A stretch of DNA of 64,000 bases from the NCBI GenBank assembly GCA_963829055.1, contig CAWHHI010000003.1, positions 64,001 to 128,000 on the forward strand. Reading direction: 5' to 3'. The notes beneath the pieces were generated by a model. The model saw only the letters and a list, made by a program, of their open reading frames with translations, made no database searches and was not told the DNA's origin. Below, one piece after another: positions 1-63,836 of this stretch. The DNA comes from an uncultured Gemmatimonadaceae bacterium. Lineage in GTDB: Bacteria > Gemmatimonadota > Gemmatimonadetes > Gemmatimonadales > Gemmatimonadaceae. The position numbers and the translations under genes are program-made. Numbering within the stretch: position 1 is the stretch's first letter; each line of letters starts with the position of its first letter.

Positions 1-898
1 CCCGGCCGCCGTTCCCGCCGGCCACGTGGTATCGTGTGGTCCAGGTCCTCGCGTCAGGCGAGACGTCGATGCGGTAGTCGGACGCGTGGTGGCCTGGCTC
101 CCAGTCGAGCACGAGGCCGCCGAATTCCCGCGCACGCTGAAAATCGACGGTGAGCGCCTGTACGGCGTTAGGCGGCAGCGTCGGAGTCGGCGGTGCACCC
201 CGCGGCGCCGCCGCGCCTGGCGGAGCGGGAGAGGCGGCACTCGCCTTCGTCGCGCGCCACACCGTTGTCGTGTCGCCGTCGAGCGCACGGCGCGCTTCGG
301 CTCCCGGCGTCTCTGCCGTTGCAGCGACGAGAGGTGTCAGTGTGTAGGGGACGTCGGGCGGACGAGGGCGCAGCTCCAACTCGTCGATCCACACCGTGCC
401 TTTGCCGCCGCTGCCCGCGGTGACGGAGATCTCGATCGCCGCGACGCGCGTGAGATCACCTCCGCCTTTCGGTCCCCACGCGAACGTGATGTGTCGCTTC
501 TTCCGCACCACCTCGGTCCACGTGCGCGGGAACTCGAAGCCGGGCTGGTTCGACCACCACACGTTGTCGCCGCTCGGGTCCACGAGCTTGAACTCGAGCG
601 TGTTCGGCGGCGCGTCGCCCCGCACGCGAAACGCGAACTCGTAGTTCGCCGGGACGGTGAAGTTGAACGCCTTTCGCACGACCGCGTACCCGCCGCCACC
701 GTGAAAGTCGAAGTCGAGCCGCATGGCCCGTCCGCGAAAGCCGGAGTCGGACGACACGCGGAGCGACACGCCGTCTGACGGGCGCGCCGACCAGCCGTTC
801 GTCGACTCGAACGCGTCGAGGACCGTCGACTTCTGCGCGTTAGGCGACAGCGGGCCGAGCGTGGCGGCGATCAGAAGCGCGCCGGTGAGCCACCTCAT
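1..898 (-). CDS. Secreted discoidin (F5/8 type C)-domain protein of the glucan cluster; runs off the window edge
   Basis: Open minus-strand frame from ATG 898, overlapping the upstream permease stop (ATGA). My translation shows a signal-like N-terminus, then LDFDFHGGGGY..., LEFKLVDPSGDNVWW..., HITFAWGP..., which I recognise from this gene neighbourhood. Confidence 0.6.
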   Translation of the reverse strand, partial: MRWLTGALLIAATLGPLSPNAQKSTVLDAFESTNGWSARPSDGVSLRVSSDSGFRGRAMRLDFDFHGGGGYAVVRKAFNFTVPANYEFAFRVRGDAPPNTLEFKLVDPSGDNVWWSNQPGFEFPRTWTEVVRKKRHITFAWGPKGGGDLTRVAAIEISVTAGSGGKGTVWIDELELRPRPPDVPYTLTPLVAATAETPGAEARRALDGDTTTVWRATKASAASPAPPGAAAPRGAPPTPTLPPNAVQALTVDFQRAREFGGLVLDWEPGHHASDYRIDVSPDARTWTTRYHVAGGNGGR

Positions 899-1745
899 CC
901 CTTGACGCTGCCCGCCATGACGCCCTGGATGTAGTAGCGCTGCAGGAACAGGAACACGAGCAGCACCGGCAGGATCGTGAGCACCGAGCCGGCCATCATC
1001 AGCTCGGTGTCCTGGACGTGCTCGCCGACGAGGTTCGCGAGCGCGACGGGCAGTGTGTAGTGCGACTCGTCGCTCAGCACGATCAGCGGCCACATGAAGT
1101 CGTTCCACGTCGCGAGGAACGTCCAGATCGCGAGCGTCGCGAGAATCGGAACGATTCCCGGCAACACGACCGATCGGTAAATCCGCATCTCCGACGCTCC
1201 GTCGATGCGCGCGGCGTCCAGCATGTCGTCGGGAATGCGATTGCGCGTACTGCCGGATGAGGAAGATGCCGAAGATGCTCGCCAACCCGGGAATGATCAC
1301 GCCCCCAGTAGCTGTTGATGAGCCCGAGTTGCTTCATGAGCAGGAAGAGCGGAAGCATCGCGACCTGCACCGGGCAGCACGAGCCCGGCGGCGAGCACTC
1401 GAAACAGTCCGATCGCGTCCACGAAAGCGCAGCTTGGCGAACGCGTAGCCGGCCATCGAGTTGACGGCGAGCGAGAGCAACGGTGACGACGAGCGAGATG
1501 AACGCGCTGTTCAGCAGATAGCGACCGAGGTTCAGCCGCGTGAACAGTGCCCCGTAGTGCTCGAACGTCACTCGGCTCGGCAGCACGCGCGGCGGGTACG
1601 TGCTCGCTTCACCCGTCGGCATCAGCGAGGCGGAGACCATCCAGAACAGTGGGAAGAGAGCGAGCAGCGCCCCGGACGATGAGCGCGACGTACAGCAGAA
1701 TCGCGTCGGACGCTGCGCCGGACTGCGGAACCGCGATCCGCTCAT
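895..1745 (-). CDS. Carbohydrate ABC transporter permease (MalG-like), frameshifted
   Basis: EAA-loop segment LDAARIDGASEMRIY, WNDFMWPLIVL and the C-terminus QRYYIQGVMAGSVKG. Split across ORFs 1083..2000 and 895..1224. Confidence 0.9.
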
Positions 1746-2652
1746 CACCGCTCTCCCTCTGCAAGTCGGAGCTGGACCAGCGTGGCGACGAGGATCACGA
1801 CGAACAGCACGAACGCGATCGCCGCCGCGTAGCCCATCCGCCACCAGCGGAAGCCTTCCTCGTACATCAGCAGCACCACGCTCGTCGTGCTTCTGCAGCG
1901 GGCCGCCCTGCGTCATCACGTACGGCTCGGCGAACAGCTGGAAGTAGCCGATCATCGTGATCACGCCGACGAAGAGCAGCGTCGGGCCGAGCATCGGCAA
2001 GCGTGACGCTGCGGAACGTGCGCCACGGACCCGCGCCGTCGATGTTCGCGGCGTCGTACAGCTCTTCCGGAATGCTCTGCAGGCCGGCGATGAAGATCAG
2101 CATGTTGTAGCCGAAGTTCTTCCACACCGCCATCAGGATGATCGCCGGCATCGCCCAGCGCGGGTCGCCGAGCCAGTCGACCGGCGCGACGCCGACGGCA
2201 CTCAGCGCGTAGTTGAGCAGGCCGTAGCGCGTGTGGTAGAGATAGCGCCACACGATCGCCACCGCGACGAGCGTCGTGACGAATGGCGTGAAGTAGATCG
2301 TCCGGAACAACGACTTCCATCGCACGAGCTTCGCGTTGAGCAGCAACGCCGCGCCGAGCGAGACGGCGATGGTGAGCGGGCCGCCGACGACCGCGAAGTA
2401 GAACGTGTTGCGAAGCGCCGACCAGAAGAGCGGCGTCTCGAGCAGCGTCGCGTAGTTGCGCAGCCCGACGAAGCGCGTGTTCGACGCCGACGCGACTGCG
2501 TAGATGTCGAAGTCGGTCACACTGAGCAGCAGCGCCGCGACAACGGGAAGGAAGAAGAAGACGCCGATGAGCACGAGCGCGGGCGCGACGAACAGCCACG
2601 CGGCCGACGTACCGTCGGCTGGCATGCGCACGCGTTTCGCGCTCGACGTCAC
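1742..2652 (-). CDS. Carbohydrate ABC transporter permease (MalF-like), frameshifted
   Basis: FVGLRNY, WKNFGYNMLIFIAGLQSIPEELYDAANIDGAG and FQLFAEPYVMTQGGP motifs. Confidence 0.9.
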
Positions 2653-3974
2653 CGCGCCGTGCTCCGCGCCGGCTGTCCGCTCCGCTCGGCCATCCAGCGA
2701 CGCTTCTCGAGCAGGCCGTTCACATCACGATCGAGGGCGGTGAGCGTCGCGTCCACCGTCAGGCGGCCGCGGATGGCCTGTTCGCCGTACTCGTACACTT
2801 TGGTCGCGATCTGCTCCCACTCCGGCACCTGCGGGAGTGGCACGACGCGTTCGAGCTGATCGTGGAACGCACGCGCATAACGATTACCGGCGAGCGCGGG
2901 CTCGTTCCACGACCGCGCGGTGCGCCGGCAGGTCGCCCGTGAGCTCGTAGAAGCGCAGCTGCACATCGGGCCGCGACAGGTACTCGACGAGCTGCCAGCT
3001 CTCGGTCTTTCGCTTCGACCCGCGGAATACGACCAGACTCGCACCGCCCGCCATCGAGACGCCGAGCCCGTCGGGACCGGGCAACGGCGCGGTCATCCAC
3101 GTGCCCTGCGATTCGGCCGGCAGGCGGTTGGTGAACTCACCGATCTGCCACGGCCCGCTGATGTACATGGCAATGTTGCCGCGCGCGAACTCCTGATAGA
3201 GGTTGGAGATCTCGGTGCCGCTCACTTTCGGCGCGAGTCCGTCGTTGAACAGCCCGACGTAGAAGTCGAACGCCTTGCGAAAGCGCGGATCCGAGAACGC
3301 GCCGTAGTGGCCGTCGTCACGAAGCAGCGGCGCGCCCGTCTGGAGACCCGAGGATGACTGGCGGTGGCCACTCGTTCGTCGGGAGAAGGATCGGGTACTG
3401 TCGCGCGCCCATGCGCGCCTTGATGCGTACCATCGCCTCGCGCCACGCGGCCCACGTCGTGGGCATGCTGTCGTACCCAGCGGCACGCAGCAGGTCTGTC
3501 CGGTAGAACATCACGCGCGTGTCGACGTACCACGGAATACCGAACGTCGTATCGTCGACGACGTTCGTGCTCCAGATGCCCGGGAAGAAGTCGGCGCGCG
3601 CCAGTGACTTGGAACGCGGCGACCTGTGCGTCGAGCGGCTCGAGCGCGTCGAGCGCGACGAACTCCGGAACCCACGTGTTGCCGAGCATGCGCAATGTCC
3701 GGCGTCGCTTCGCCGACGAATGCCGTGAGCAGCTTCTCGTGCGCGGCCGTCCACGGGATCTGCTGCACGCGAACGTGCACGCCGGGATGCTCGCGCTCGA
3801 AGTCCGGGATGAGTTGCGCGACGACTTCGCCCTCGCGCCCCATGGCCCAGAGGCGAATGTCGTTGGTCTCCCGGCCAGATGCCGTGGTGCACGCAGCGCA
3901 TCGCGACAGCCAGCGAGCACCAGCGACGCATGCACGACCACGCGACGATCGCGTCGCGACTCGACAGGCCTCAC
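2649..3974 (-). CDS. Sugar ABC transporter substrate-binding protein, frameshifted
   Basis: Segments WAMGREGEVV...QQIPWTAAHEKLLTAF, GIPWYVDTRVMFYRTDLL and ISGPWQIGEF...AGGASLVVF, spread over several frames. Confidence 0.88.
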
Positions 3975-5471
3975 TGCTCAAGCCAACCTCCGGTGAAGCC
4001 CGGCCCGCTTCAGTCCGCCCTCGATGTACGGGTTCGTTCGCATCACACGCCAGACGAGGCCCGAGCGGTGATTCTCGACCATCGCGATGATCGGGCCCTG
4101 ATCGATGCCGAGGTAGTCCGATGTCGAACCAGCGCGACGCCGGGGACGACTCGACCAGCTTGCGGCGTTAGGCCGGAGCGCGGAAACGTCGGCGTTGAAC
4201 GCATCGAGAAAGCCGTATTTCGTGAACAGATTGTCGCCGTACTTCTCGCGCATGGCGATCAGCGCCGGAATCGCGATCTCCGGCGCGAAGGCAACGGAGC
4301 CGCCAGCGGCCGTCGGTGCAATCGTGCCGTCGTCGCGAATCTCGCCCCACGCCGCGCCGCGCGCCGCGTAGGTGTAGAACACGCGCGGAATACCGTCGAT
4401 GGTGATGGGGCCATCGCGCGGTCCGTCAGACGCCGTGAGTCCCCACTCGTTCGCCCCGTACCCCGCCCATCGGTACGGATTGTCGATCGCGTACAGCGCG
4501 TTGCGAGATCGTGGCGCGCCGCGAGTTCTCGAAGTAGTCGATGCCCTTGCCGCGCATGTAGGCATCGCGGATGCCGCGGAAGTCCACCCACGTGTGCGAG
4601 TACTGATGGCCGAACAGCGGCGCGAAGTTCACGTGCTGCTGCCCGTAGAAATCCTGCCAGCGGTAGTTCTTCGTCCACTCCTCCCACGCCGCCGGCTCGA
4701 GCGCGTGCGTCGGCGAGCCGAACGCGAGGATGTAGACGATCATCGCCTCGTCGTAGCCGCGCCAGTCGAATGGCAGGAAACCTTCCTCCGGCTTCCAGCC
4801 CATGTTGACGGCTGGTGGACGATTGCGCGGCCACGTCCATTCCACTCGGCGATACAGCGAGTCGGCGTACGCCCGCACGGACCGTTCGACCTGGCGTCGT
4901 GTCGGCGAAGTACGACTGACAGAACAGCGCGCCGGCCAGTAGCAGCGACGTGTCGATCGTGGAGAGCTCGACCTTCTCGAAGCGATGGCCCGTTCTCGAA
5001 GTCGAGGAAGTGGTAGAAGAATCCCTTGTAGCCGGCGACGCCGGTGGCCGCTTCGCCCTGCGGCAGCTGCCAGAGAAAGCGGAGCGTCGTGAGCGTGCGC
5101 TCGGCGGCGGCCGTTCGCGTCACGTACCCGCGCTCGACGCCGATGGGATACGCCGTGAGCGCGAAGCCGATGGCCGCGACGCTCGAGAACGTGCGACTGG
5201 GCCACCGGTCCGGCGTTAGGCCCGTGCGGGCATCGGTGTTGTCCCAGAACCACTGGAACGTGCGCTGCTGGAGCGTGTCGAGAAACGCGTCTTGCCGACG
5301 CGCATCGATGCGCGTCGGCTCCGGAGCGGTAGTCGGTGGCCGGTGGGTTACACGCGACGACGCCGGTCCCGAGGAGCGTCGTCGCACCCGCGACGCGGAC
5401 CAACCGGGCGACGCGCGATCAGCTGCGTCGCCCGGTCGAACTCGCCGTGCTTCGACACCCCTCGCGATCAT
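3971..5471 (-). CDS. 'Glucoamylase'-family protein, GH144-like endo-beta-1,2-glucanase, frameshifted
   Basis: Segments GLTPDRWPSRTFSSVAAIGFALTAYPIGVERG, GYKGFFYHFLD, WRGYDEAMIVYILAFGSP, PLFGHQYSH, WGLTASDGP, DGTIAPTA and YLGIDQGPI. Confidence 0.85.
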
Positions 5472-8400
5472 TGCCCCTGAATCGCGCGCGGCGAGATCGG
5501 TTGCAAGCCGTACCGGAGTCCTACCTGAAGCCGCCGTCCGAGTCCGGCGCAGCCCGGCGTGTTGTAGTTCGGATTTGGAGTCGACTCGATGGTCGCGTTG
5601 TAGCAGCCGTAGTTCGCGTTGTTGAACGTGTTGAAGACGTCCGCCACGATACTCACGCGCTGGGCGTCCGCAAACCCGAACGCCTTCTCGACGCGAAGGT
5701 CGACGGTCTGCGTGCTGAAGACGTGCCCGATGCCGAGGAAGGGCTGCGTCGGCGGGGAGTAGACGTACTTTCGCTGCTGGCCGAACGCGCTGCCGGCCGA
5801 GTTGTCATCGGCGTTGATAGTGAGCCCCGTCCCGAGGTTCACGATCGTGCTCGCATAGATCTGTCCACGGAAGCCTGACGATTCCGTTCGCGACGATCGG
5901 TATGTACCTGATTCCCCGGCGCGCGCCGCCGCGGCAAATCGCCGACGGTCGGATATTTGTCGTCGAATCCCCAGAAGATGTCGGTCGTTTGCCCCTGCTC
6001 GTCGGATCTGGCCAGCGTGTACGCGATGGACCCGCCCCAGCGTGTATCGGCGAGAATGGGCCGGTCGATCTGCACCTGCATGGCGTCGTACCAACTCTTC
6101 ACGCGATCGTCGGTGACGAACGCCGTCGCGTAGTTCGGTCCGAGGCCACCGAATCCCGACGCACGAACGAAGTTCATGCCGTTGTCGCCACGCACGCCGT
6201 TGTACGACAACGTCACGAGCGCGCGGCCGACGCCCTGCCGCAGACCGCCGCTGAACTGGTAGGTCTTGGGTGGCTTGAGATCGTTCGCGACCAGGAAGAT
6301 TTCGGGGACACCGGCGGTCCCTGACAATGTCTTCAGCTGCGCCGGATCGAGATACTTCGGATCCCAGACGACGCAGTTGACTGGAGAGCCTGCCGGGCAC
6401 GACGTTCGGAAATCAATGCGCGGAACGTTGTACTGCCGGCGGAAGCGCTCGTCGAACAGCGTGTTCCAGTAGTTGCGATCATAGTAGATGCCCGCGCCGG
6501 CGAACAGCACGCTGCGACCGCTGCCGGTGACGTCGAACGACGCACCGACGCGAGGCTGCCACGCGTTCTTGAACACGGGGCGATCGCTGCTCCCGGTGGT
6601 GATGTACCGATCGAGTCCGCCGAGCTCGTCGATCACCCGCACCTGCTGGGTATTGCAACACGTGCCATCGGACTTCAACACGGGACGATCGACGACGAGC
6701 TTGCTGTTGAGAGCCCCACGCAGCGAATCCGCGAGCGGTGCCGGCGTGACATAGTCGTTGTTGATCATGTTGGTCTCGACGTCCCAGCGGAGTCCGAGAT
6801 TCAACACGAGTCGGGGCGTGACCGTCCAGTCATCCTGGAGGTACGCGCCGAACTGCTGATTGTCCGTCGTTACTTTCGGATCGCCGAAACCGTATACGGC
6901 TTCGAACGGACGGGCGTAGTTCTCATCCTTCCGGTAGCGATAGACCGGCGTCGCCTGCTGGTTCTTGATCGCTTCGTAGCTAAGGAAGTCGACCGACGCG
7001 CCGCCTTTGAACACGTGGTCGCCGCCGAACTGGACGCCCGACCGCGTTAGGTCGTTGCGCAGCGTAAGGCGTGTCTGGGTGAAGTCCTGGCTCGCATCCT
7101 TTCCGCCGACTCTCAGAAGGCCCTGATAGTCTTGCACGATCGGCGTCTCCGACTTCGGGATCGCGCCCCACGTGAAGCGCTGGCCGCTCAGCTGAGCCTC
7201 GTTCAACCATCGGTCACCGGCGTACTTCCAGTTGCGCGACGCCCGTGTAGACGTTGACGTCGAGGTTTTCGGCCGCCTGGAAGCTGGTCTGATTTCCGAA
7301 TCCGCGGAAATCGGTTTCTCGTCGAATGTTCGCGCTCGCGTCGATGGTGCTGCGATCGGACTTCTGCCACGTGAGCTTCCCGAAACCGAGGTGTTCGCGG
7401 AACTCACTCGTGAACTGGCCGGTGAGCGGCTGTAGTTGCGCGATCAGTGAAGGTGGTGCGCTGAGTCGTGTCGCCGCCGAGACGCACGTATCCGGGCTCA
7501 TCTCGCGCGTTCAGCTCGTAGGTTCCGAAGAAGAAGAGCTTGTCCTTCGCGATCGGCCCGCCGAGGCTGCCGCCGGCCTGGAGCCGCTTGTAATCGGGAC
7601 GCGGTTCGCCGCGCTGAGCGGAGATGGCATCTCGGGCGACGTACGACTTGCCGACACCGAACGCGAACGCATCACCCTCCCACTGATTGGTGCCGCTTCG
7701 CGTGGTGGCCGTGATGATCGCGCTGGCGGCCTTCTGGTACTCCGCCTTGTAGTTCTGCGTGATGACGCGGAACTCCTGCACGGCGCCCTGCGGGAATGGA
7801 TTGCCCTTGCTCGCATCCTGACCGACGACACCGCCTCGCAGCACGTCGTTCTTGTAGCTGGCGCCATCGACGAACACGTTGACGGCTTCAGGAGGCTGAC
7901 CGCCCGCCGAGATGAACTTGTCGCTGTTGTTCACGGCGGTCGCCGTCATGCCCGGCGCGAGTCGAGCGAGGTCGAGAAAGTTTCGCTCGAACGTTGGCAG
8001 GTTCTGGATCTGCTCGCGTGTGACGTTCGTGCCGACTTCCGACGTGCGCGACGTTTCCGTGGAGGTCGTGACCACGGCGACCGCGGCAAGCTGGGTCGCT
8101 GTTTCCTGAATGGAGAGATCGAGGGTGATGGTCTGGCCGATGCCGACGGTCACGGTGCGTGTCTGTGGCGTAAACCCGATGCGCCGCACCGTGACCTCGT
8201 ACGTGGCGGGCCGAAGTCCGGCGAGGTTGTAGAAACCGCTGGCGTTCGACACGGTGCCGCGATTCATGCCCATCGCCACGTTGCTCGCGGCGACCTGTGC
8301 GTCGGGGACGGCCGTATTGTTCGGGCCGCGGATGTAGCCGCGGATGCTGCCGGTCGTTGTCTGCGCGCTCAGCGTCGTCGGTGCCGCCGTCGTCATGGCG

Positions 8401-8513
8401 AGCCACATCACCGCGCCAGCGCTCACGCATCGGGTGATCGTTCGGCGCAGCGTTCGGCGCGGCGCTCCGCACGGCGTTAGGCGGCGTGATATCACACGTA
8501 CGTCATTCATCAT
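5468..8513 (-). CDS. TonB-dependent receptor (Oar-like, N-terminal carboxypeptidase-regulatory-like domain), frameshifted
   Basis: Signal peptide, RNFLDLARLAPG, AVQEFRVITQNYKAEY, YLQDDWTVTPRLVLNLGLRWD and a C-terminal RLQV-G-RY-like strand. ORFs 7404..8513, 5839..7407 and 5468..6400. Confidence 0.9.
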
Positions 8514-8598
8514 GGCTCCCTCGCTCCCGTGAGTCTGTCGTTCCTTCGAGCATTCAGATGATTTCGCTCACTCCCCCATCAGCGCCGGCAGGTTGTCG

Positions 8599-9624
8599 TT
8601 AGGTAGGTGGCGGTCGCTCGCTGGGCAGGCGCGTGCCGCAGGATTGGCGGATGACGAGCCTCGTCTCCAGCCGCTGATGCCGTCGCGTGTGCTCGTTCTT
8701 GCGAACGATCGCATGCAGCACCGTCTCCACCGCTCGCGTCCCGAGTTCCGCGATGGCCACGTGCACAGAGGACAGAGGCGGATTCATATATCTGGCGAGC
8801 GGGATATCGTCGAACCCGACCACAGCGATGTGATCCGGGACGCGTACGTCCGCATCGCGCAGTGCACTTAGCGCGCCGATGGCCATCGCATCGTTGGCCG
8901 CGAACACGGCGGTCGGCCGCTCGCCAAGGGCGAGCAGGTGTGTGACTGCACGGAAGCCCGCCGTCTCCGTGAAATCGCCTGGTAATTCCCACTCTGGTCG
9001 CGGATCGATGCCGGCGTCGCGCAGCGCGGCGCGGTAGCCACGCAAGCGCTCTTCGGCGTCGTAGTTCCCCGCCGCACCGCGGATGATCGCGATCGACCGA
9101 TGTCCGAGCCCGATCAGATGCTGGATCATCTGGTAGGCGCCGCTCTGGTTTTCGATGGTGAGCGCGTCGTAGCCGTCGCCGCTCACGTGGCAATTGAGCA
9201 GTACGACGGGGAGCGTGGCGGGTACGTTCGCGACCAGTGCGGGGGCGTCCAAGTGCGGCGACATTGCGATCAAACCGTCCACCCGCCCCCGCATTGCCCT
9301 CAGCGCGGCCTCGATCTCGGGCTTCGCGTCGTGCGAGCTCGAGACGAGCAGATGGTAGCCGCTCCGTTGGGCGGTCTGGTCCATTCCCCGGATGACTTCG
9401 GAGAAGAATTCTCCGTAGAGGTCGGGCAGGAGGACGCCGAGGGTATTCGTCCGGCTGGTGATCAGGCTGCGGGCGACGCCGTGCGGCGAATAGCAGAGCC
9501 TGGCAGCAACCTCCTGAATCCGGACGCGCGTCTCCTCACTGACCGGCCCGCTGGAGTTGAACACGCGGGACACGGTGGCGACGGACACGTTGGCCTCACG
9601 CGCGACGTCCTTGATCGTTGCCAC
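8599..9624 (-). CDS. LacI-family transcriptional regulator
   Basis: ATIKDVAREANVSVATVSRV helix-turn-helix; VVGFDDI...PPLSSV sugar-binding domain. Confidence 0.97.
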   Translation of the reverse strand: MATIKDVAREANVSVATVSRVFNSSGPVSEETRVRIQEVAARLCYSPHGVARSLITSRTNTLGVLLPDLYGEFFSEVIRGMDQTAQRSGYHLLVSSSHDAKPEIEAALRAMRGRVDGLIAMSPHLDAPALVANVPATLPVVLLNCHVSGDGYDALTIENQSGAYQMIQHLIGLGHRSIAIIRGAAGNYDAEERLRGYRAALRDAGIDPRPEWELPGDFTETAGFRAVTHLLALGERPTAVFAANDAMAIGALSALRDADVRVPDHIAVVGFDDIPLARYMNPPLSSVHVAIAELGTRAVETVLHAIVRKNEHTRRHQRLETRLVIRQSCGTRLPSERPPPT

Positions 9625-12508: not shown

Positions 12509-12594
12509 TGCCATCGCGGCCAAATCGCGTCAGATGAGGGCCTAAAGGTGCTGTTTCGCCGGTGCGGTCCCGGAGGCACATTTCGCGGCTCGCC

Positions 12595-53797: not shown

Positions 53798-53801
53798 CGG
53801 T

Positions 53802-53939: not shown

Positions 53940-53953
53940 TACGGGAGACGATC

Positions 53954-54700: not shown

Positions 54701-54734
54701 CGCTCAGCACCTTCGGCTGGTAACGGAGCCGCGA

Positions 54735-55122: not shown

Positions 55123-55956
55123 ATGGAGAGTCCCCTGGAATCCCCGCACGTCACCGATCTCGCACTCGCCCAACGACTCGAGCGCGCCGAGGGGAGCGCG
55201 AATGCCGCGTTCGTCGAATCTCGCGCGCGAAGCGCGCCCGCGATCGGCGCCGAATGGCGCGACGTAGGAGGCACGTACGCGATGTTCGACGGCGTCGGCT
55301 CGCCGATCACGCAGACGTTCGGGTTCGGCCTGTTCTCCGCGCCGACACATGGACAACTCGACGAGATCGAGGCGTTCTTCCGCGAGCGTGGCTCCGAGGT
55401 GTTCCAGGAAGTCAGCCCGCTCGCCGCTCCTGAGGTCCTCACGATCCTGCCGGAGCGCGGCTACCGCCCGATCGAGCTCACGTCGGTGATGCACATGCGC
55501 CTAACGGGAGATCGACCGGCCGCGCAGCGCCGCTCGTCCGCCGAGCTCACGGTGCGGCGCATTGACCCGGGCGAGGAGCCGGTGTGGGCCGAGACGGCGG
55601 CGCGGGGCTGGGGAGACGTTCCAGGGCTCGGTGAGCTCGTGCTCGACCTCGGTCGCGTCAGCGCGGGCAGCAGAGGCACCGTGTGCTTTCTGGCCGAGTG
55701 GAACGGCGCGCCCATTGGGGCTGCGGCGGCGGCGCTGCATGGAGGCGTCGCGGTGCTCGCGGGTGCCAGCACGGCGCCCGAGTTTCGCGGCCGCGGCGCG
55801 CAGGCCGCGCTACTCGGCGCCCGCCTGGCGTACGCGGCGTCTGCCGGTTGCGATCTCGCGATGATGGGAGCGTCGCCGGGTAGCGCGTCGCAGCGGAACG
55901 GCGAGCGTCAGGGATTCCGGATCGGCTATACGCGGATCAAGTGGCAACAGAGATAA
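55123..55956 (+). CDS. GNAT-family acetyltransferase
   Basis: ASTAPEFRGRGAQAALL...SQRNGERQGF. Confidence 0.9.
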   Translation: MESPLESPHVTDLALAQRLERAEGSANAAFVESRARSAPAIGAEWRDVGGTYAMFDGVGSPITQTFGFGLFSAPTHGQLDEIEAFFRERGSEVFQEVSPLAAPEVLTILPERGYRPIELTSVMHMRLTGDRPAAQRRSSAELTVRRIDPGEEPVWAETAARGWGDVPGLGELVLDLGRVSAGSRGTVCFLAEWNGAPIGAAAAALHGGVAVLAGASTAPEFRGRGAQAALLGARLAYAASAGCDLAMMGASPGSASQRNGERQGFRIGYTRIKWQQR

Positions 55957-56158: not shown

Positions 56159-58849
56159 TTACTCCCAACGTAGTGCCCGCACAGGGTCCAGCTTCGAAGC
56201 TCGACGCGCCGGCAGCCAGGCCGCCAACGCACCAGCAGCAAGCAGCACCGCCGAGACAGCGAGCAGCGTAACCGGATCCGTAGGCGTGATGCCATAGAGC
56301 AGCGGCGTAGCAACCGCACGCAGCGAGACCGCCAGCGCGAGCCCCACCGACAAGCCAATTCCAGCCACCGCTACGCCGCGCCGAAGCACCGCCGCTCGCA
56401 CCGACGTCGGCGTCGCACCTAACGCCATGCGCACGCCGATCTCGCGCGTGCGCTGCGCCGTCACGTACGACAACACGCCGTAGAGGCCGATCGCGCCCAT
56501 GAAGAGCCCGATCACCGCCGCCACCGCGAAACCAATCATGGAGAAGCGCATGCCGCTCTGCGCCGCCGCCACCACCGACGACAGCGTCCGAGTCTCGGCC
56601 AGCGGCAGCGTCGGGTCGAGCTGCGCCAGCTGATTCCGCGCCGCCGCGATCAGCGAGGCCGGCGGCATGCTCGTGCGCACCGCGTACACCATCGATCGCG
56701 CAAGCCAGTCCATGTCCACGCCGGGCTTGTTGATCATCGCGTAGTAGACCGCCCCGACCGGCTCCTTGTCGAGCGCGACGCCGCGCACGTCGCCGACGAC
56801 GCCGACGACCTCTGACCACGGCTTCTCGCCCTTCACGCCGGCGAGTCCGTGCGCCACCCGCGCGCCCACCGCCGGCCGCGACTCCATGAGCTTCCGCACG
56901 ACGGTCTCCGTCACGAGCACGACGCCAGTGTGCCGCTCCGTGTCCGATCGCTCGAGCAGGCGGCCGGCCAGCTTCGGGATACCCATCGCCTCGAAGTAGC
57001 CCGGCGTCGCGACCCGCATCTCGGCAAGCGGAGGCAGCACGTTAGGCGGGAACGCCCGGCTCTCGAGTCGCAGCGGATCGGCTTCGCCATTGTCACCGGA
57101 CAGCGGCAGGCGACCCGTTGCCCCGGCCGCGAATACGCCGGGAAGCGCCCGCATGCGATCGAGCATTGCGTAGTGGAAACGAGCCACATCCTCGGACGTG
57201 GGGTAGCCCGACTGCGGCAGCGCAATGCGAAACGTGATCACGCCGTCGGCGCGAAACCCCGGGTCGACCGCGCGCAGCTTCTGAAAGCTCCGCAGCACGA
57301 GCCCCGACCCAACGAGCAGCACCGTCGCCATCGTGACCTGCGCGACGACGAGCAACTGGCGCAACTGGCCGCTCCGCCGGCCGATCGTCGCGGCGCGATC
57401 GCCACCACGAAGCATCGACGACGGCGCCACCGAACGGTTGTGCGCCACCGGCACGACGCCGCACACGACGGCCACGACCGCGGCGACGAGAGTCGTGCCG
57501 GCCAACACGGTCGCGTCGAGTCGAATGTCGCCGAGACGCGGGAGCAGGCTCGGGGCGAGTCGGCGCAGGAGCGCCACCGCACTCCAGGCGAACAGCACCC
57601 CGACCGCCGTGCCCGACAACAGCAGCATCGCGCTCTCCGCCAGCGACTGCGCTAGCAGATGCCCGCGGCCGGCGCCTAACGCGATTCGCAGCGCGACCTC
57701 GCGCCGCCGGGCCTCGGCCCGCACGAGCAGGAGGCTCGCGACGTTCACGCAGGCGATGAGCAGGACGAGCCCGATCATCGCCCACAACGTCCAGAGCACC
57801 GGGCGCACGCGGCCGACGACGTCGTCGAGGTATGGGTGCACATCGGTGGTGAGGCCAGCATCGCGCAGCGTCGCGATCGAGATGAAGTCCACGAGCGTCG
57901 CGACGCGCGGAAGCAAAGCGGTGAGTTCGCGGGACGCCTGCTCGGGCGTAACGCCGGCGCGAAGACGGCCGATGCCCGGCAGGTAAAAGCCGCTCAGGTC
58001 GTTACGGTCGATGCGCATGGGCACCCATAGCTGGGCCGCCTCGGTCGGGAACGCGAAACGCGCCGGCATGACGCCGATGATCTCGCACGTCGTGCCGTCG
58101 ACGGTTACGGTGCGGCCGATGACGGACGGGTCACCGCCGAAGCGCTGTCGCCATAGCGCATGCGACAGGATGACCACGCGCGGCCCACCCGGTCGATCCT
58201 CCTCGACTGAAAACGTCCGGCCTAACGCTGGCGGGATGCGAAGCACGTCGAACAGGCTGCGGGTCGCTGATACGACGTCCACCCAGTCGGGCGGCGCGTC
58301 GTTGCCCGTCAGGCTTCCCTGCCATGTGGAGTACAACGCCATCGCCTCGAAGCTCCGGCTTCCCTCCGAGTACACGGTGTGGGTGGCCGAGGAGTTCGGG
58401 ATCTGCTTCGGGAGGTCGCCTCCGCGCGTGTGGTGGCCGATCGTGACGATGCGATCGGGGTCAGGGTACGCGAGGGGCCTGAGGAGCACGCCGTTCACGA
58501 CGCTGAACACCGCCGCGTTGCCGCCGATCCCTAACGCGAGCGTCAGGACGGCCGCGATCGTGAAGCCCGGGGTCTTCCGCAGCTGACGCGCGGCGAAGCG
58601 GAGGTCGAAGCCCGCGCGCTCGATGCCGCGCACGCCGCGACCTTCCCTCATGGATTCCTTGTGCCCTTCGACGCTCCCGAACGCGAGCGTCGCGCGTCGT
58701 CGCGCCTCGTCGGCCGGTAGTCCTCGCTTCGCGTGCTTCGCCGCTTCCATTTCGATATGGAAGCGCATCTCCTCGTCGAGCTCTCGCTCCAGCGTGCGCC
58801 GCGAGGCGAGCGCGCGAAGCCACATGGTGATTCGCTTGGTGCCGCGCAT
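56159..58849 (-). CDS. ADOP-type duplicated ABC permease (second copy)
   Basis: [38 protein letters not shown] and [13 protein letters not shown]. Confidence 0.95.
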
Positions 58850-58865
58850 GTCTGGGCCTCGGGCG

Positions 58866-59198: not shown

Positions 59199-59486
59199 TT
59201 CTACCTCTACCCCGCTGTCATTTCGATACCGATCGTGTCGTCGTTCCGAGCCGGGCGCCCACGGACGGTGCGGGAATGAGAACTCGCAGTCGTGCCGTGG
59301 AGACTCGGCGTTGCCTATTTACGATTTCGAGAGAAGAGAATTCACCCCGGTCCTGTTGAAGTCAAGAGGAGCGGTGACACCTCGTCGACCGAATTCCACC
59401 ATTCGTCGTACAGCCGCCGCAGCGGCGTATCCGACGCAGAGCGGTCGCTCTGCATAGTCGCCTCCGTACCACTCACTGGAGGCGTG

Positions 59487-60599
59487 ATGGTCGCGAACTC
59501 TTCGCAGCGCTGGCTGCGCGTTGCTGCCGCACTACTGCTCGCCACGACGTCAGTCGCTGCACAATCGACATCGTCGGCGCCGTTCGTCCCAGAGATCGTC
59601 AAGACGCAGCTCGCCGACGGCGTCTTCCTGCTCGCCGGAGGACCCGACGGCTATGTCGACGGCACGAATACCGTAGTCGTTGTGAACGACAACGGCGTGC
59701 TCGTGTTCGACACCAGCACGCGACCGTCTACTGCGCGCGCAATCCTCGCGGAGATCCGGAAGATCACCGACAAGCCGGTGCGCTACGTCGTCAACTCGCA
59801 CTGGCACCCGGACCACTGGTCGGGCAACGAGGTGTTCGCCGACGCGTTTCCTAACGTGGAGTTCATCGCGACGGAACAGGCGAAGACCTACATGCTGAAC
59901 ATGGGGAACTTCTTCGCCCCGCGCTTCAAGCAGCGGCTGCCGAAAACGGAAGCGACGTACGCGAGCGAGATCGCGACCGGCAAGGACGCGGACGGCAGCA
60001 CACTCTCTCCCAAGGAGCTCGCCGACGAGACGACGTTCATGACGCGCTACCGGACCTTCGTCGCCGAGACGCAGACGGTTCGCCGCACGTATCCGACGCT
60101 CACGTACGTCGACGAGCTGCGCCTGGGGCACGTGGGGCGTGGCAATCAAGAGATCGTGCTCATGAGCGTCACCGGCGACGCCGAGGGTACGACGGTGATG
60201 TACCTGCCGCAGGGGAAGGTGCTCGTCACTGGCGACGCGGTCTCGTATCCACTTCCCTACACCACGCCCCCGCCGAGCCGTCACGCGAAGAGTCTGCGGA
60301 CGCTCGCTCGTCTCGACGTCGACGCGATCGTCCCGGGACACGGGCCGGTGTTTCGCGACAGGAGCTTCATCAATCTCGAGGCAGAGTTCCTCGAGACCGC
60401 GGTCGCCCGCGTGCAGGTGTCGCTCCGCAAACCGCTCTTCCTGCTCGCGGACGTTCAGAAGGATGTGAACATGGACGACTTCCGCGTGCGCTTCACGAAG
60501 GATGACCCGACGCTGAACAAGCAGTTCGCGGGATTCGCGAGCGGCGTGGTCAGGCTGGCGTATCTGGAGTCGCGAGACAACCAGGAATCGCGGCCATAA
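59487..60599 (+). CDS. Secreted MBL-fold metallo-hydrolase
   Basis: NSHWHPDHWSGN, TGDAV and VPGHG; signal peptide. Confidence 0.92.
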   Translation: MVANSSQRWLRVAAALLLATTSVAAQSTSSAPFVPEIVKTQLADGVFLLAGGPDGYVDGTNTVVVVNDNGVLVFDTSTRPSTARAILAEIRKITDKPVRYVVNSHWHPDHWSGNEVFADAFPNVEFIATEQAKTYMLNMGNFFAPRFKQRLPKTEATYASEIATGKDADGSTLSPKELADETTFMTRYRTFVAETQTVRRTYPTLTYVDELRLGHVGRGNQEIVLMSVTGDAEGTTVMYLPQGKVLVTGDAVSYPLPYTTPPPSRHAKSLRTLARLDVDAIVPGHGPVFRDRSFINLEAEFLETAVARVQVSLRKPLFLLADVQKDVNMDDFRVRFTKDDPTLNKQFAGFASGVVRLAYLESRDNQESRP

Positions 60600-60823: not shown

Positions 60824-61414
60824 CTAGCGACCGCGTCTCGAGTCGATCCTGACGCCGAGGCGCATGCTTGCCCGCCCGCCCTTCTCCGCGTCAGCGTACC
60901 CGCCGGTGTCGTAGTCGTGCGACAACCACGCGTAGTGGGCGGCGGCGTCGACCTGCAGGTGGCTCGCGACGGACCACAACACACCGGCTCCGAGGCCGGA
61001 GATGTACCCGGTCGCTTCGTCAGTGATGCCTAACACGCCTTCATACGTTGCCATGGCGCGACCGAGGCGCACCGCGGCGTACGGTACCACCCGCCGCAGC
61101 GGAGCGCCGAACACGACGCGAGGCTCGAAGTAGATGTTGCTGACGATGTAGTCGCCGTCTGTGTCCTCGCGGCCGTAGCTCGTGCGATCGTACCCGACGC
61201 CGAGCTGCCACCGACCCAGGACGACGCCACCATTGGCGTCGTAGCCGACGGCAGCCTCCGTTCCGTTGAAGTCGTCGCCGGTGAGATTGCCGTACATCGC
61301 ACCCGCGCCCAGCGTGAAATGAACGCGCGACGACGATGCACTTTGCGCGTGGGCGGCGGAAACCGTGAGCGCGCTGATACAGGCAATGATCGACGCGGCG
61401 AGCGATCGCCGCAT
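60824..61414 (-). CDS. Outer-membrane beta-barrel protein
   Basis: Signal peptide; alternating aromatic/Gly beta-strands, VVPY, and terminal MRLGVRI. Confidence 0.75.
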   Translation of the reverse strand: MRRSLAASIIACISALTVSAAHAQSASSSRVHFTLGAGAMYGNLTGDDFNGTEAAVGYDANGGVVLGRWQLGVGYDRTSYGREDTDGDYIVSNIYFEPRVVFGAPLRRVVPYAAVRLGRAMATYEGVLGITDEATGYISGLGAGVLWSVASHLQVDAAAHYAWLSHDYDTGGYADAEKGGRASMRLGVRIDSRRGR

Positions 61415-62733
61415 CAACTTTTCGGCATGCCCGACTCGCGAGTCCCCAGACGATAGATGAGCACGGCCGCGCGCTTCGTGAGTTTCGGCAACCAGCGCAG
61501 GTCCGCCGTCTCCTTGTCGGAGTGGTCATCCCAGCCGGCGAGGCCTAACGCGTCGATGGCCATCGGGATGTACGGCGCGGCGAACGAGACGTCCGCGGCT
61601 CCGGCGCGCGACGGGTCCACCGCCACCACGGGCCCATAGCCGAGGGCACGGCTCACGGAGTCGTAGGCGGCGAGGAGCCGGCGGTTGCCCTCCGTCGGCG
61701 CCATCGGCGGATACCCGTCGTCGAACGTCAGCTCGGCCGTCGTCTTCGGCAGATGCTGCGCGACGACTTCGGCCATCGTCGCCTTGGCCTTCGCCAGCTG
61801 CTCGGGCGAGAGCGCCCGGAGGTCACCGCTCACGATGGTCTGACCGGCGACGACGTTCGTCTTGCCGAACGCCGTGCCGCCACCCTGCGCGGTGTCATAC
61901 TTGACCTCCGACCCGCCTAACACGACGCCAGGGTTGAACGTCAGATACTGCTGCCCACTGAGCTTCTCGCGAAACCCCTGAAGAATGCGCGCCGCCTCGA
62001 ACAGCGCGCCGGCGCCGATGTCGTCGCGGAAGATCTGCGACGAGTGCGCCGGCGTGCCGGTCGTGCGGAGCGTCCACGACCCCGCGCTGCGGCGCGAGAT
62101 GACCGCCGTATGCGGATCGCCCGAGCCGTCCTCGAAGCCTAACGCCACCTGCGATCGCTTGGCCGCTTCGGTGAGCGTGGCGCGGGCGGCGTCGAGTGGC
62201 GCACCAGCATCCTCCTCGTCGCCATGCATAACGACAGTGATGCTCAGTCCGTCGAGCAGGCCCGCGGTCTTGAGCGCCCGGAGCGCCTCGACGATGATGA
62301 CGTCCCCGCCCTTCATGTCGATGATGCCGGGGCCGCGCGCGGTCGAGTCGCTCAGTCGCTCGAATTTCTGGAACGGGCTGCGCGGCTCGAACACCGTGTC
62401 GAGGTGTCCGATCAGCAGAAGACGCTGGCCGCGCCCGTTCCGCTCGGCGACGAGATGCCCGGCGCGCTTGAAGCTGCCGCCGTCGACCCACTTGGTGGAG
62501 AAGCCGAGCGCATCGAGCTCGGCGCGGAACGCGTCGCCCACCTGCCTGACGCCGGCGAAGTTCATCGTCCCGCTGTTGATGTTGACGACGCGCTCGAGCA
62601 GCGCGAGCGCCTGGGCGTTGCGCGCATCGACGGCGGCGGCGATGCGACGCTCCGGCGCGGTCAGCGCCGGCGTCTGAGAGAGTGCCACCGTCGGCAGGGT
62701 CAGACACGCGCACAGCAAAACGCCCTTCATCAT
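61414..62733 (-). CDS. M20/M25/M40 metallopeptidase (glutamate-carboxypeptidase-like)
   Basis: LIGHLDTVF, GPGIIDMKGG, GDEE and GAADVSF. Confidence 0.93.
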   Translation of the reverse strand: MMKGVLLCACLTLPTVALSQTPALTAPERRIAAAVDARNAQALALLERVVNINSGTMNFAGVRQVGDAFRAELDALGFSTKWVDGGSFKRAGHLVAERNGRGQRLLLIGHLDTVFEPRSPFQKFERLSDSTARGPGIIDMKGGDVIIVEALRALKTAGLLDGLSITVVMHGDEEDAGAPLDAARATLTEAAKRSQVALGFEDGSGDPHTAVISRRSAGSWTLRTTGTPAHSSQIFRDDIGAGALFEAARILQGFREKLSGQQYLTFNPGVVLGGSEVKYDTAQGGGTAFGKTNVVAGQTIVSGDLRALSPEQLAKAKATMAEVVAQHLPKTTAELTFDDGYPPMAPTEGNRRLLAAYDSVSRALGYGPVVAVDPSRAGAADVSFAAPYIPMAIDALGLAGWDDHSDKETADLRWLPKLTKRAAVLIYRLGTRESGMPKS

Positions 62734-62755
62734 TGACTCCAGGTTCTCAGTGAAA

Positions 62756-62950
62756 GTCATTCCGGGCGGCTGTCATTCCGAGCGGAGCTGGTGTCATTCC
62801 GAGCGAGCGAGCCGGGTGCCACCGAGCGGGTCGAGGAATCCTTGCTCTCTGGGTAGAGCGGCTTCTCTGCCGGGACGCCAAGGATTCCTCGACTGCGCGC
62901 CTTCGGCGCTCCGCTCGGAATGACAAACCGCTCGGAATGACAACCCGCTC
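62756..62950. repeat. REP/REPIN-like palindromic element with iterated ends
   Basis: Three GTCATTCCG left ends and two CGCTCGGAATGACA right ends; internal GTCGAGGAATCCTTG pairs with CAAGGATTCCTCGAC. Confidence 0.9.
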
Positions 62951-63836
62951 AAGATTTACGCGCCCGGCCCACCACGAGCGTGATGTTGTCCGTGCCGCCG
63001 CGATCGAGCGCCATCTTCAGCAACTCGTGGCACACCTGCTCCGCGGATTCCATTGCGGCGAGCTTCGTCGCGATCTCGTCGTCGGGCACGTGCTTCGTGA
63101 GCCCGTCGCTACATACCAGGATCACCGACCCACGCTGCCTGACATCCACTCGGCTCACCTCGGGCATCGCTTCCGACGCGCCGATGGCGCTCGCCAGCAC
63201 GTGGCTGAGCGGTGACGCCTTCATCTGCTCCTTCTTGAGGATGCCCTCGTCCACGAGGTTCTGCGCGACCGTCTGGTCGCGCGTCACCTGCCGCAGCGCC
63301 CCGTCCTGATAGACGTAGCAGCGGCTGTCGCCGACCTGTAGCACATACAGCCACGGCCAGACCACGATGCCTAACGACAACGTCGTCGCCATCTGCCGCC
63401 CGCCGAGCTCGGCGACGGCCTCGGCGCGGACCGTGTCGTGGGCCTCGATCGCCGCCGTGCGCAACGCATCGGTGAACTCCGACTCGCTCGCCGAGCCCGC
63501 CGTGTGATAGCAGCGAAGCGCCGTCGCCACGTACTGCGTGACCGCCTCGGTGGCGATGCGGCTCGCACGACTACCCGCCGCGCTGCCACCTACGCCGTCC
63601 GCCACGAGCATGATCGTGGCGAGCCGCTGCCCGCGCAGCGCGAGGGAGCTCGTCTCCGGCAGGCTGGTCCCATGAATCACGACCTGCGGGTGCACCGTGC
63701 AGAGAAGGAAGTGATCCTGATTCTCGGTGCGGACGCGGCCCGGATGCGTAAGGCCGAAGAGGTCGAGCTCGTCGTCGCGAGGGCGCGCGTTGGAACCAGC
63801 GGGGCTCTGCGTAGAGAACGGCGCGGCGAGGCTCAT
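62949..63836 (-). CDS. PP2C-family Ser/Thr protein phosphatase
   Basis: THPGRVRTENQD, VADGVGG, VGDSRCY, CSDGL and GGTDNIT. Confidence 0.95.
   Translation of the reverse strand: MSLAAPFSTQSPAGSNARPRDDELDLFGLTHPGRVRTENQDHFLLCTVHPQVVIHGTSLPETSSLALRGQRLATIMLVADGVGGSAAGSRASRIATEAVTQYVATALRCYHTAGSASESEFTDALRTAAIEAHDTVRAEAVAELGGRQMATTLSLGIVVWPWLYVLQVGDSRCYVYQDGALRQVTRDQTVAQNLVDEGILKKEQMKASPLSHVLASAIGASEAMPEVSRVDVRQRGSVILVCSDGLTKHVPDDEIATKLAAMESAEQVCHELLKMALDRGGTDNITLVVGRARKS

Follow-up and report, generated by a model that had tools for sequence, protein, structure and literature searches.

The DNA considered here is a 64,000-nucleotide stretch of an uncultured soil bacterium of the Gemmatimonadaceae (hereafter the window; positions 64001-128000 of contig C3 in the genome under study, G000, a 7.78-Mb assembly of 20 contigs), and its subject is the heptamer CGTTAGG, which reads CCTAACG on the opposite strand. 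We found that this heptamer, most often extended by a C to the octamer CGTTAGGC, is a signature word of the whole genome, present in thousands of copies and written against the genome's own codon habits. The window contains 57 exact copies of the heptamer, 32 reading CGTTAGG and 25 reading CCTAACG on the plus strand, each exactly at a start listed in the initial annotation of this DNA, which had been made from the letters alone. Dinucleotide-preserving shuffles of the window (n = 100) gave a mean of 3.59 copies (standard deviation 2.05, maximum 9) and none of them reached 57; the excess over chance claimed by the initial annotation therefore stands, whereas its estimate of about 7 chance copies was a little high. 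The same annotation had remarked that the next base is often C and that TTAG and CTAA are rare outside the word. Both remarks are borne out, as 40 of the 57 copies continue as CGTTAGGC and C follows the heptamer in 78% of copies genome-wide, while the window has 78 TTAG and CTAA in total, 57 of them within the word and 7 within the one-letter variant TGTTAGG (CCTAACA), all seven variants lying where they had been reported.

Across G000 the heptamer occurs 6,391 times (3,237 on the plus and 3,154 on the minus strand), about once per 1.2 kb and on 20 of 20 contigs, which makes good the earlier proposal of a genome-wide signal, and 6,391 of the 8,933 occurrences of TTAG fall inside the word. An order-2 Markov model predicts 249 heptamers, a 25.7-fold excess, and 102 copies of CGTTAGGC, of which there are 5,004, a 49-fold excess that rises to 163-fold once the word is masked from the model. 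In genome-wide counts under the order-2 model the word tops the over-representation ranking at each length from 5 to 8. Markov models of maximal order were uninformative, since the excess is absorbed by the sub-words, and lower-order and masked models were used instead. Words that differ by a single letter are not depleted in the genome, and TGTTAGGC (33-fold), CGTTATGC (10.5-fold) and CGTCAGGC (2.9-fold) are enriched. When the main word is masked, the next most over-represented words are its one-letter variant CGTTATGC (583 copies, 11-fold) and a family around TGTCATTCCGAG, for example GGAATGAC with 932 copies (3.9-fold); the family may be an unrelated dispersed element. C16, with 1 copy per 1.46 kb, carries the word less densely than C20, with 1 per 1.03 kb.

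The excess is not a product of codon or peptide content. Genes were called with a codon-usage caller, giving 6,843 genes that cover 74% of G000, and these calls are approximate, partly because of frameshifts in the assembly. Called coding sequence contains 4,074 copies of the word, compared with 345 after a within-gene synonymous shuffle that keeps both protein and codon usage and 177 after a shuffle of codon order (10 replicates each), so that the excess over the codon-preserving nulls is 12- to 23-fold. Neither of the outcomes that the initial annotation had named as refuting was obtained, as the excess outlasts a null that keeps codons and protein and extends over many contigs and assemblies. 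On the gene strand the word is read as xCG TTA GGx in 1,579 cases, CCT AAC Gxx in 1,181, xxC CTA ACG in 777 and xxC GTT AGG in 519, and thus occupies all four non-stop frames, as well as stop codons and uncalled DNA. By the count of stop codons it supplies 227 TAG and 278 TAA stops, and by the frame tally 216 and 263. Among TTA codons 56% lie in the word, as do 20% of CTA codons; for the stops the shares are 33% of TAA and 13% of TAG. Copies lie along the gene strand (2,314) about as often as opposite to it (2,221), and their density is nearly flat across codon-usage quartiles, at 0.66-0.79 per kb. We conclude that the word is imposed at the level of the DNA and not on proteins or RNA.

Beyond the word itself, conservation is limited to position -1 (G 41%, T 28%, A 18%, C 13% in G000) and to the C at position +8. 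The absence of conserved flanks beyond these two positions indicates a solitary 8-9-mer and not a mobile or longer repeat. A dispersed repeat of the repetitive extragenic palindrome (REP) or miniature inverted-repeat transposable element (MITE) type was rejected, as extended flanks are lacking and 71% of copies lie within called genes, the other 1,856 of the 6,391 (29%) falling outside.

The spacing of the copies is non-random in one respect. Gaps shorter than 200 bp number 408, compared with 977 predicted by an exponential distribution, and there are more gaps of 400-1,500 bp than predicted (3,453 versus 2,739); overall, the variation in spacing is about random (coefficient of variation 1.05), and only close copies, nearer than about 200 bp, are depleted. 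Neighbouring copies are co-oriented in 3,293 of 6,371 cases (51.7%). The initial annotation took the near-equal use of the two strands as an argument against a replichore-polarised role of the kind played by Chi or by the FtsK-orienting polar sequences (KOPS), and its argument is upheld by the lack of polarity around the sole skew switch that we found. This switch lies on C16, where GC skew and gene orientation flip near 550 kb within a region of about 500-600 kb and gene-strand bias is very strong, up to 0.9, to either side; the arms about it carry 201 plus and 159 minus copies, and 246 plus and 248 minus copies. The region is probably the replication terminus. A gene for a Xer-like recombinase (C16:540795-541592) lies near the switch.

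The origin of individual sites can be followed in rpoB, for which we made a codon alignment across 24 genomes. There are 3 word sites in rpoB of G000, 2 in G004, 3 in G005, 10 in G014 and 3 in G030, and 0 in the remaining 19 genomes. Most of the 13 alignment sites fall on conserved residue patterns (ALG, PLG, SLG, PNG, PNV and xLT), and three are at residues that vary between genomes (columns 341, 1240 and 1309). The word is made there by silent changes to rare codons, namely CTC to TTA, CCG to CCT, CTC or CTG to CTA, and GTG CGN to GTT AGG. Some sites are common to several carriers and others are private. The RpoB proteins of G004 (L039) and G005 (its counterpart L055) are almost identical, yet syntenic DNA elsewhere in these two genomes is 71% identical, so one short rpoB contig is probably mis-binned and the sites shared by G004 and G005 should not be over-read.

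Sites also persist. In a 14-kb syntenic part of the window, compared with four species of the same genus at 70-74% identity, the word has been kept at 28 of the 44 G000 sites in the alignment, the background for all aligned 7-mers being 16%, and over all ordered pairs 146 of 206 word sites are kept, against 20% for 7-mers; the region is small and the species are related, so these figures are an indication and not a statistical test. The word is kept by selection or by a directional drive. From its DNA-level origin, its persistence and its spacing we infer that something reads it. The initial annotation had proposed a DNA-level signal of a kind it did not recognise, with uptake, nucleoid-protein and modification or repair functions as candidates, and that proposal stands on the codon nulls, the silent changes in rpoB and the sharing of the word by relatives.

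We examined 30 relatives and used the reversed word as control. An unpublished genome (G013) enters as one poor relative in the tallies of abundance, IntI, rpoB, the tree, ComEC and the D12 methylase (probably also in those of RecC and AddAB), and no conclusion rests on it. All 6 of 6 genomes of the same genus are rich in the word, with 2,501-5,112 octamers each. The richest relative belongs to another genus of the family (G014, 6,360 octamers in 5.1 Mb, 92% complete); G010 has 605 octamers and G030, from another family, 345. G018, with 194, lies below its own reversed-word control, as do the remaining 20 relatives, with 3-65 octamers compared with 42-433 for the control. The word is thus common to the same-genus genomes and to some other Gemmatimonadaceae. 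In a tree of RpoB the genus forms one clade, G014 is a branch of an unresolved comb that also contains poor genomes, and the clade of the other family includes G030. The trait is patchy within the family, and the tree is compatible with a single origin there.

A collection with one genome per species was scanned for two octamers lying 200-230 bp apart. Among the scan matches listed, most are metagenome-assembled genomes (MAGs) of Gemmatimonadaceae, and many, unexpectedly, are MAGs of Chthoniobacterales/Verrucomicrobiae. Five of the latter (G031-G035) contain 2,140-5,186 octamers in 2.9-4.3 Mb, compared with 257-382 for the control, with copies on both strands; a 100-kb one-strand polarity considered in G034 was rejected, as the DNA shows both strands. 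Five MAGs titled as Gemmatimonadaceae, a family assignment that we take from the titles, have 2,927-7,821 octamers, and one of them is probably the same as a same-genus relative already counted. Single matches in Acidobacteriota, Nitrospira and others (five at phylum level) were set aside because the word is not rich genome-wide there. The cultured Gemmatirosa kalamazoonensis KBS708, a soil bacterium that is not pathogenic, is also a carrier: the first 50 kb of its finished megaplasmid, plasmid 1, contain 30 copies, all of them octamers, against 0 for the control. In all, at least 18 other assemblies carry the excess. The core is constant and the flanks form lineage dialects, T preceding the word in 86-94% of copies in three Verrucomicrobiota samples and one genome using ACTCGTTAGGC. 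The full-text literature, from which subscription journals fall outside coverage, yielded no published description of the word, by sequence or by concept in these phyla; searches by sequence returned primers and unrelated uses only, and nothing relevant was found in the methylome and competence literature on Gemmatirosa.

Viral contigs were matched with the same two-octamer pattern, which gave 120 matches and 79 loci of at least 4 kb, 16 of which reach 0.5 copies per kb. Most of the 120 were rejected as chance pairs or short one-strand arrays. One contig of 44,089 bp is a near-complete phage (CheckV 98%) with genes for a RecT-like protein, a replication initiator, a large terminase, a portal, a tail-fibre-assembly-like protein and an endolysin. 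It carries 34 copies of the word (22 plus, 12 minus), compared with 7 of the reversed-word control; their flanks follow the Gemmatimonadaceae-type dialect, and they show a weak bias along the genes (19, versus 8 opposite). On another viral contig (G104, L254) 11 copies lie at about 18-24.4 kb, ten of them on one strand and 9 of the 11 preceded by A, with those between 19.6 and 22.0 kb about 300 bp apart; the arrangement resembles an attC-type array, here lying within a contig that is classified as viral.

The letters of the word are also those of an integron cassette boundary. Integron core sites are given as GTTRRRY/RYYYAAC in PMC3053210, and GTTAGGC fits this core. In the poor relatives the few word matches cluster in one-orientation arrays, about 550 bp apart, that are integron cassette arrays, each attC site running from GCCTAAC (R'') through L'', a spacer and L' to CGTTAGGC (R'), so that the word equals the R' end of attC letter for letter, the preceding C included. 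One such array (G021:C95:1-24,000; L001/L002) has at least 26 attC sites about 550 bp apart in a single orientation, and large chromosomal cassette arrays are also present on G019:C3, G021:C80, G021:C43, G023:C113 and G029:C1. G000 itself has an integron (C20:200430-208958) with an IntI gene at C20:208041-208958 that scores 265.7 bits, just above the family cut-off, and the R' ends of the attC sites beside it read GCGTTAGG(C/T). The attC-like array (…AACT..GCGTTAGGC/T) lies on the 3' side of IntI and not on the usual 5' side. Genome-wide, however, the L-box context of attC is found at 1 of 6,391 copies, and this near absence shows that the genome-wide word is not attC. An inverse core 40-160 bp upstream accompanies 166 of 7,103 GTTAGG in G000, and the R''-side form GGTTAGGC has 112 copies, versus 5,004 for CGTTAGGC. 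In verrucomicrobial integrons adjoining IntI the attC ends have the form …GTTCTCGTTAGG(C/T); the word is preceded by T at 7 of 7 of these sites, as it is in 86-94% of copies genome-wide, and the attC ends of G000 have G before the word in 5 of 5, G being also the commonest base there genome-wide (41%). The samples are small (5 and 7 sites), and the attC sites may simply be subject to whatever drive acts on the genome at large.

The genes screened as possible readers do not distinguish carriers from other genomes. IntI scores above the cut-off in 18 of 31 genomes regardless of the word, is fragmented in the rich G014 and scores too low in G002 and G004, and the word-rich G033 yielded none; as its presence does not track the word, it was rejected as a discriminator of carriers. 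ComEC was rejected likewise, being universal among the 31 genomes. RecC was found in 0 of 31, the E. coli control being positive. An AddAB-like PDDEXK_1 pair occurs in 13 of 31 genomes, at least 8 of them poor, and was not found in G014 at its 92% completeness, so RecBCD/AddAB was rejected on distribution. Methylases of G000 were sought by a crude procedure, consisting of a signature screen, a Pfam scan of 20 out of 28 candidates, of which 27 were gene calls and the other an open frame, and a closer look at one locus. It yielded one DNA methylase, of the D12 class and frameshifted in the assembly, and no C5-methylase signature was found in the gene screen. The D12 gene, an orphan adenine methylase, lies in two frames at G000:C8:134570-135650, between genes for an extracytoplasmic function (ECF) sigma factor and a CoA-transferase. 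Its family is present in 13 of 31 genomes (all 6 of the same genus and 6 poor genera too) and was not found in the rich G014, nor in G010 or G030; as a reader it too was rejected on distribution.

By analogy with known signature words, we tentatively consider the most likely role of the word to be that of a tag of self or kin DNA that favours the uptake and/or recombination of DNA carrying it. A protein, a sequence-specific DNA-binding factor, would read CGTTAGGC; alleles closer to the word would be preferentially taken up and recombined in; such biased uptake would drive the word into every place that the protein sequence tolerates, and one copy per fragment of about 1 kb would suffice. We place this role first because the statistics match best those of the uptake signal sequences and DNA uptake sequences (USS and DUS) and of the highly iterated palindrome HIP1, and because HIP1 is itself now proposed as an uptake recognition sequence (PMC13756078, PMC5861425). 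Genes suited to such a process are present in the genome, namely ComEC and the type IV pilus genes for PilM, PilN and five pilin-like proteins. In Neisseriaceae the minor pilin ComP is the receptor for the uptake sequence. For Pasteurellaceae a minor pilin is predicted to be the uptake receptor, according to PMC12616744.

Several results weigh against this role. No dedicated reader or receptor was found among the ComEC, pilin, methylase, RecC, AddAB-like and IntI genes screened. ComEC is present in 31 of 31 genomes, rich or poor alike, and so does not discriminate between them. Two orphan pilins (a 141-aa open reading frame (ORF) and a 198-aa open frame) gave matches to the N-terminal helix only, in rich and poor genomes alike, and one of them is without a full-length match even in its own genus. 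Neisseria uses close inverted pairs of its uptake sequence as terminators; in G000 close inverted pairs are not enriched, with 20 inverted versus 45 direct pairs under 50 bp. No substitute word was found in 100-kb samples of the poor relatives G008 and G018. The word is present on a near-complete phage, which spread driven by uptake does not predict unless the phage is temperate. Finally, genomes rich in one and the same core turn up in two unrelated phyla, among Gemmatimonadaceae and among Chthoniobacterales, and are scattered in each: only 4 of 61 genomes in an even sample of Chthoniobacterales are rich (G088 and G076 among them), and carriers stand on separate branches of the RpoB tree. Such patchy recurrence across phyla needs a transferable reader or a shared target, unlike the known uptake sequences, and with the phage copies it is the reason why three rival explanations are kept alive.

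The word could instead act inside the cell as a protective or recombination signal, at which a translocating nuclease, a repair machine or a defence system stops or switches, as RecBCD and AddAB do at Chi; DNA bearing the word would then count as self, and phages would copy it. We hold this to be unlikely. In its favour are the near-complete phage, whose 44 kb carry 34 copies with flanks of the Gemmatimonadaceae type (7 for the control), a patchy cross-phylum distribution that fits a transferable system, a depletion of close copies that fits a need for coverage, and the conservation of sites. Against it, replichore polarity is absent, unlike in every known Chi, the 49-163-fold excess is far above the levels known for Chi, and no candidate system emerged among the genes screened, with RecC in none of the 31 genomes and the AddAB-like pair distributed as described above. 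The identity with attC invites the bolder idea, which we regard as doubtful, that a cassette boundary has been put to genome-wide use, unrelated soil lineages having acquired or evolved a reader for the attC R' end (C-GTTAGGC) that has driven chromosomes, megaplasmids and phages to about one copy per kb. Such a boundary reader could be a component of uptake or recombination that harvests the cassette arrays of the community, or an IntI-family recombinase acting on thousands of double-stranded attG-type sites; if true, integrons would be tied to a chromosome-wide recognition system. The narrower proposal that an IntI-family recombinase or another protein is tuned to the attC R' boundary, the solitary double-stranded copies serving as attG-like binding or landing sites or as a tag for capturing cassettes, seems to us more doubtful again. 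It would account for the identity with the 3' end of attC both in the relatives' arrays and in the array beside IntI in G000, for the recurrence of one core in two phyla, as the integron core recurs, for the agreement of the preceding base between attC and genome, and for the rarity of the R''-side GGTTAGGC, and it draws on the insertion of cassettes by IntI at double-stranded genomic GWT sites that is reported in bioRxiv 10.1101/2022.09.11.507474. It is opposed by the single copy with L-box context and the few with an upstream inverse core, by the distribution of IntI irrespective of the word, by the harm that insertion of cassettes within genes would do, and by the chance that the flank agreement, seen at 5 and 7 sites, reflects a shared drive.

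Two further explanations were considered. The word might be a methyltransferase target kept for an epigenetic, transformation-related or chromosome-structure role. Asymmetric sites of 7-8 bp are typical of some classes of methylase. HIP1 is similarly abundant and conserved, and two methylases recognise it (PMC13756078, PMC5861425). This we consider improbable, given that the sole DNA methylase from the crude screen, in which 20 of 28 candidates were scanned, is the frameshifted D12 enzyme that does not track the word, and that no C5-methylase signature was found in the G000 screen. Marginally less probable still is a by-product of biased mutation or repair, with neither reader nor function. 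In its favour, the word is present on a phage that replicates in the cell, and its density is nearly flat across codon-usage quartiles. Against it, sites arise through a wide variety of changes (C>T, C>A, G>T and doubles such as CTC>TTA among them) where repair of the very-short-patch type would give one, the one-off neighbours are not depleted, and under a pure mutation bias one would expect neither a shortage of close copies nor sites conserved four-fold above background. Artefact is excluded, whether from codon or peptide content, from the assembly or from a mobile repeat dispersed in the genome: the assembly does have indel errors, but the excess stands 12- to 23-fold above codon-preserving nulls, is seen on every one of the 20 contigs and extends to at least 18 other assemblies and to a finished plasmid, and the flanks are unconserved.

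Whatever the reader, a statistical signature of the uptake type is now seen in two abundant and poorly studied soil phyla with the same core word, and the identity of that word with a cassette boundary hints at a possible connection of integrons with DNA recognition across the genome. In practical use, the word sharply separates self from foreign DNA, flags likely chimeric contig ends in this assembly and predicts phage hosts, and the cultured carrier Gemmatirosa kalamazoonensis KBS708 opens the question to bench tests.

The individual copies in the window illustrate the range of contexts. Coordinates below are those of exact heptamer matches, followed by the strand; a copy is an octamer (heptamer then C) unless it is called a heptamer, codons are given on the gene strand, and gene calls are approximate. 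Outside called genes lie the octamers at 5214-5220(+), 8475-8481(+), 22173-22179(-), 24478-24484(-), 25218-25224(+), 28098-28104(+), 42352-42358(-) and 48626-48632(+) and the heptamers at 14715-14721(+), 20070-20076(+), 26631-26637(+) and 45218-45224(+). Stop codons are supplied by the heptamer at 8597-8603(+) (TAA of ORF 8599-9624(-)) and by the octamers at 51511-51517(+) (TAG of ORF 49534-51516(+)) and 54696-54702(-) (TAA of ORF 53954-54700(+)).

The reading GCG TTA GGC (ALG) is found at 19117-19123(+) in ORF 16653-19994(+), 25902-25908(+) in ORF 25277-26341(+), 47679-47685(-) in ORF 45323-48067(-), 50069-50075(+) in ORF 49534-51516(+), 57675-57681(-) and 58221-58227(-) in ORF 56159-58849(-), and 61544-61550(-) and 62138-62144(-) in ORF 61414-62760(-); the copy at 57675-57681 is kept in 5 of 5 aligned species. 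Heptamers give the same residues as GCG TTA GGG at 38492-38498(-) in ORF 38452-39951(-) and 58530-58536(-) in ORF 56159-58849(-), and as GCG TTA GGT at 56418-56424(-) in the latter ORF. In the same frame are CCG TTA GGC (PLG) at 34912-34918(+) in ORF 34149-35357(+), ACG TTA GGC (TLG) at 37170-37176(+) in ORF 36908-37693(+), TCG TTA GGC (SLG) at 41314-41320(+) in ORF 40302-41702(+) and at 63370-63376(-) in ORF 62949-63875(-), and the heptamer TCG TTA GGT (SLG) at 36776-36782(+) in ORF 36616-36879(+).

Among readings that begin with CCT AAC, PNA is encoded as CCT AAC GCC at 166-172(+) in an ORF that runs from off the window start to 898(-) and at 4166-4172(+) in ORF 3978-4382(-); as CCT AAC GCG at 838-844(+) in the same ORF as the copy at 166, at 13558-13564(-) in ORF 12562-14400(+), and by the heptamers at 46333-46339(+) in ORF 45323-48067(-) and 49555-49561(-) in ORF 49534-51516(+); and as CCT AAC GCT by the heptamer at 19278-19284(-) in ORF 16653-19994(+) and the octamer at 51178-51184(-) in ORF 49534-51516(+). 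CCT AAC GTG (PNV) occurs at 29452-29458(-) in ORF 28465-29466(+), 33477-33483(-) in ORF 32220-33857(+), 46165-46171(+) in ORF 45323-48067(-) and 57040-57046(+) in ORF 56159-58849(-), and in the heptamer at 59850-59856(-) in ORF 59484-60599(+). The heptamer at 47014-47020(+) in ORF 45323-48067(-) reads CCT AAC GTC (PNV), that at 17766-17772(-) in ORF 16653-19994(+) reads CCT AAC GAT (PND), and the octamer at 38213-38219(+) in ORF 37671-38441(-) reads CCT AAC GAG (PNE).

The CTA frame is represented by GGC CTA ACG (GLT) at 15827-15833(+) in ORF 14972-16423(-) and 44310-44316(-) in ORF 43789-44568(+), CGC CTA ACG (RLT) at 29112-29118(-) in ORF 28465-29466(+) and 55500-55506(-) in ORF 55123-55956(+), AGC CTA ACG (SLT) at 31078-31084(+) in ORF 29827-31188(-), and, as heptamers, GAC CTA ACG (DLT) at 7045-7051(+) in ORF 5839-7206(-) and 43765-43771(-) in ORF 43331-43792(+). 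CTC GTT AGG (LVR) stands at 22660-22666(+) and 23368-23374(+) in ORF 22595-24286(+) and at 44034-44040(+) in ORF 43789-44568(+). The variant TGTTAGG lies on the plus strand at 26091-26097 and 28958-28964, and on the minus strand (CCTAACA on the plus strand) at 13831-13837, 20031-20037, 30419-30425, 61029-61035 and 61916-61922.

Some features of the assembly bear on these calls. At 895-2652, 3978-4878 and 5839-8426 of the window, several genes, for an ABC permease, a glucoamylase-family protein and a TonB-dependent-type barrel, are broken up over neighbouring frames. Contigs of two or three public runs share 1-base indels relative to the window at the listed places, and further indel places are 42183, 42634, 42723, 53239 and 59442; such assembly errors lower the coverage of the gene calls. 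Of the 40 listed places where public-run contigs differ from the window, 0 fall inside word copies, about 0.3 being expected, a number too small to give this comparison power. The ORFs at 45323-48067 and 56159-58849, separated by 8 kb, encode large MacB/FtsX-type permeases that are paralogues of each other. Public contigs at 90% likeness pile up on them with many spurious joints, so that the depth there reflects a multi-copy family. Elsewhere in the genome, the longest stretches free of the word are C6:5440-55038 (50 kb), C11:1-44055 (44 kb) and C6:591808-623330 (32 kb), all at contig ends, two of them with a higher GC content (0.70 and 0.73) and one at the genome mean (0.66). They carry genes for aromatic amino-acid synthesis, FtsK, glutamine synthetase, FolD and GreA; prophages were rejected, as there are housekeeping genes and no phage genes, and these contig ends look like foreign DNA or chimeric assembly joins.

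Compared with known word systems, the word differs from KOPS in having no polarity toward the terminus. Like Chi (5-8 nt), it is asymmetric, over-represented, taxon-specific and able to mark DNA as self. Chi, however, is co-oriented with replication, which the word is not, RecC was found in none of the 31 genomes and the AddAB-like pair does not track the word, whose excess is also much larger. With the R' box of attC it shares identical letters, including the preceding C, in relatives, in G000 and in Verrucomicrobiota; the attC site, however, is an imperfect palindrome of R''-L''-spacer-L'-R' (57-141 bp), arrayed in a single orientation beside intI, while 6,390 of 6,391 copies of the word are without L-box context, few have an inverse core upstream, and copies lie within genes and on both strands. 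The role of HIP1 in cyanobacteria is still being worked out. In PMC5861425, HIP1 (GCGATCGC) is described as 15-300-fold over-represented and conserved between genomes, and the word resembles it as an octamer that is strongly over-represented, runs through genes and has conserved sites. HIP1 differs in being palindromic with known cognate methylases, whereas CGTTAGGC is asymmetric and the one DNA methylase found in the crude screen does not track it. To our knowledge, uptake-type signature words have been established experimentally in two proteobacterial families only. The word is unlike USS and DUS in extending beyond one vertical lineage to two phyla, in each of which it is patchy, in its presence on phage, in the lack of enrichment of terminator-like inverted pairs and in its identity with the integron attC core. 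Spacing of USS is reportedly more even than random, and here the likeness is confined to the depletion of close copies, overall spacing being about random. In other respects it resembles USS and DUS: the word is short and non-palindromic, has thousands of copies (about one per kb) that use the two strands equally, and occurs between genes as well as in every frame; competence genes are present, in carriers and non-carriers alike; and the copies are made by silent changes, with lineage dialects around a fixed core.

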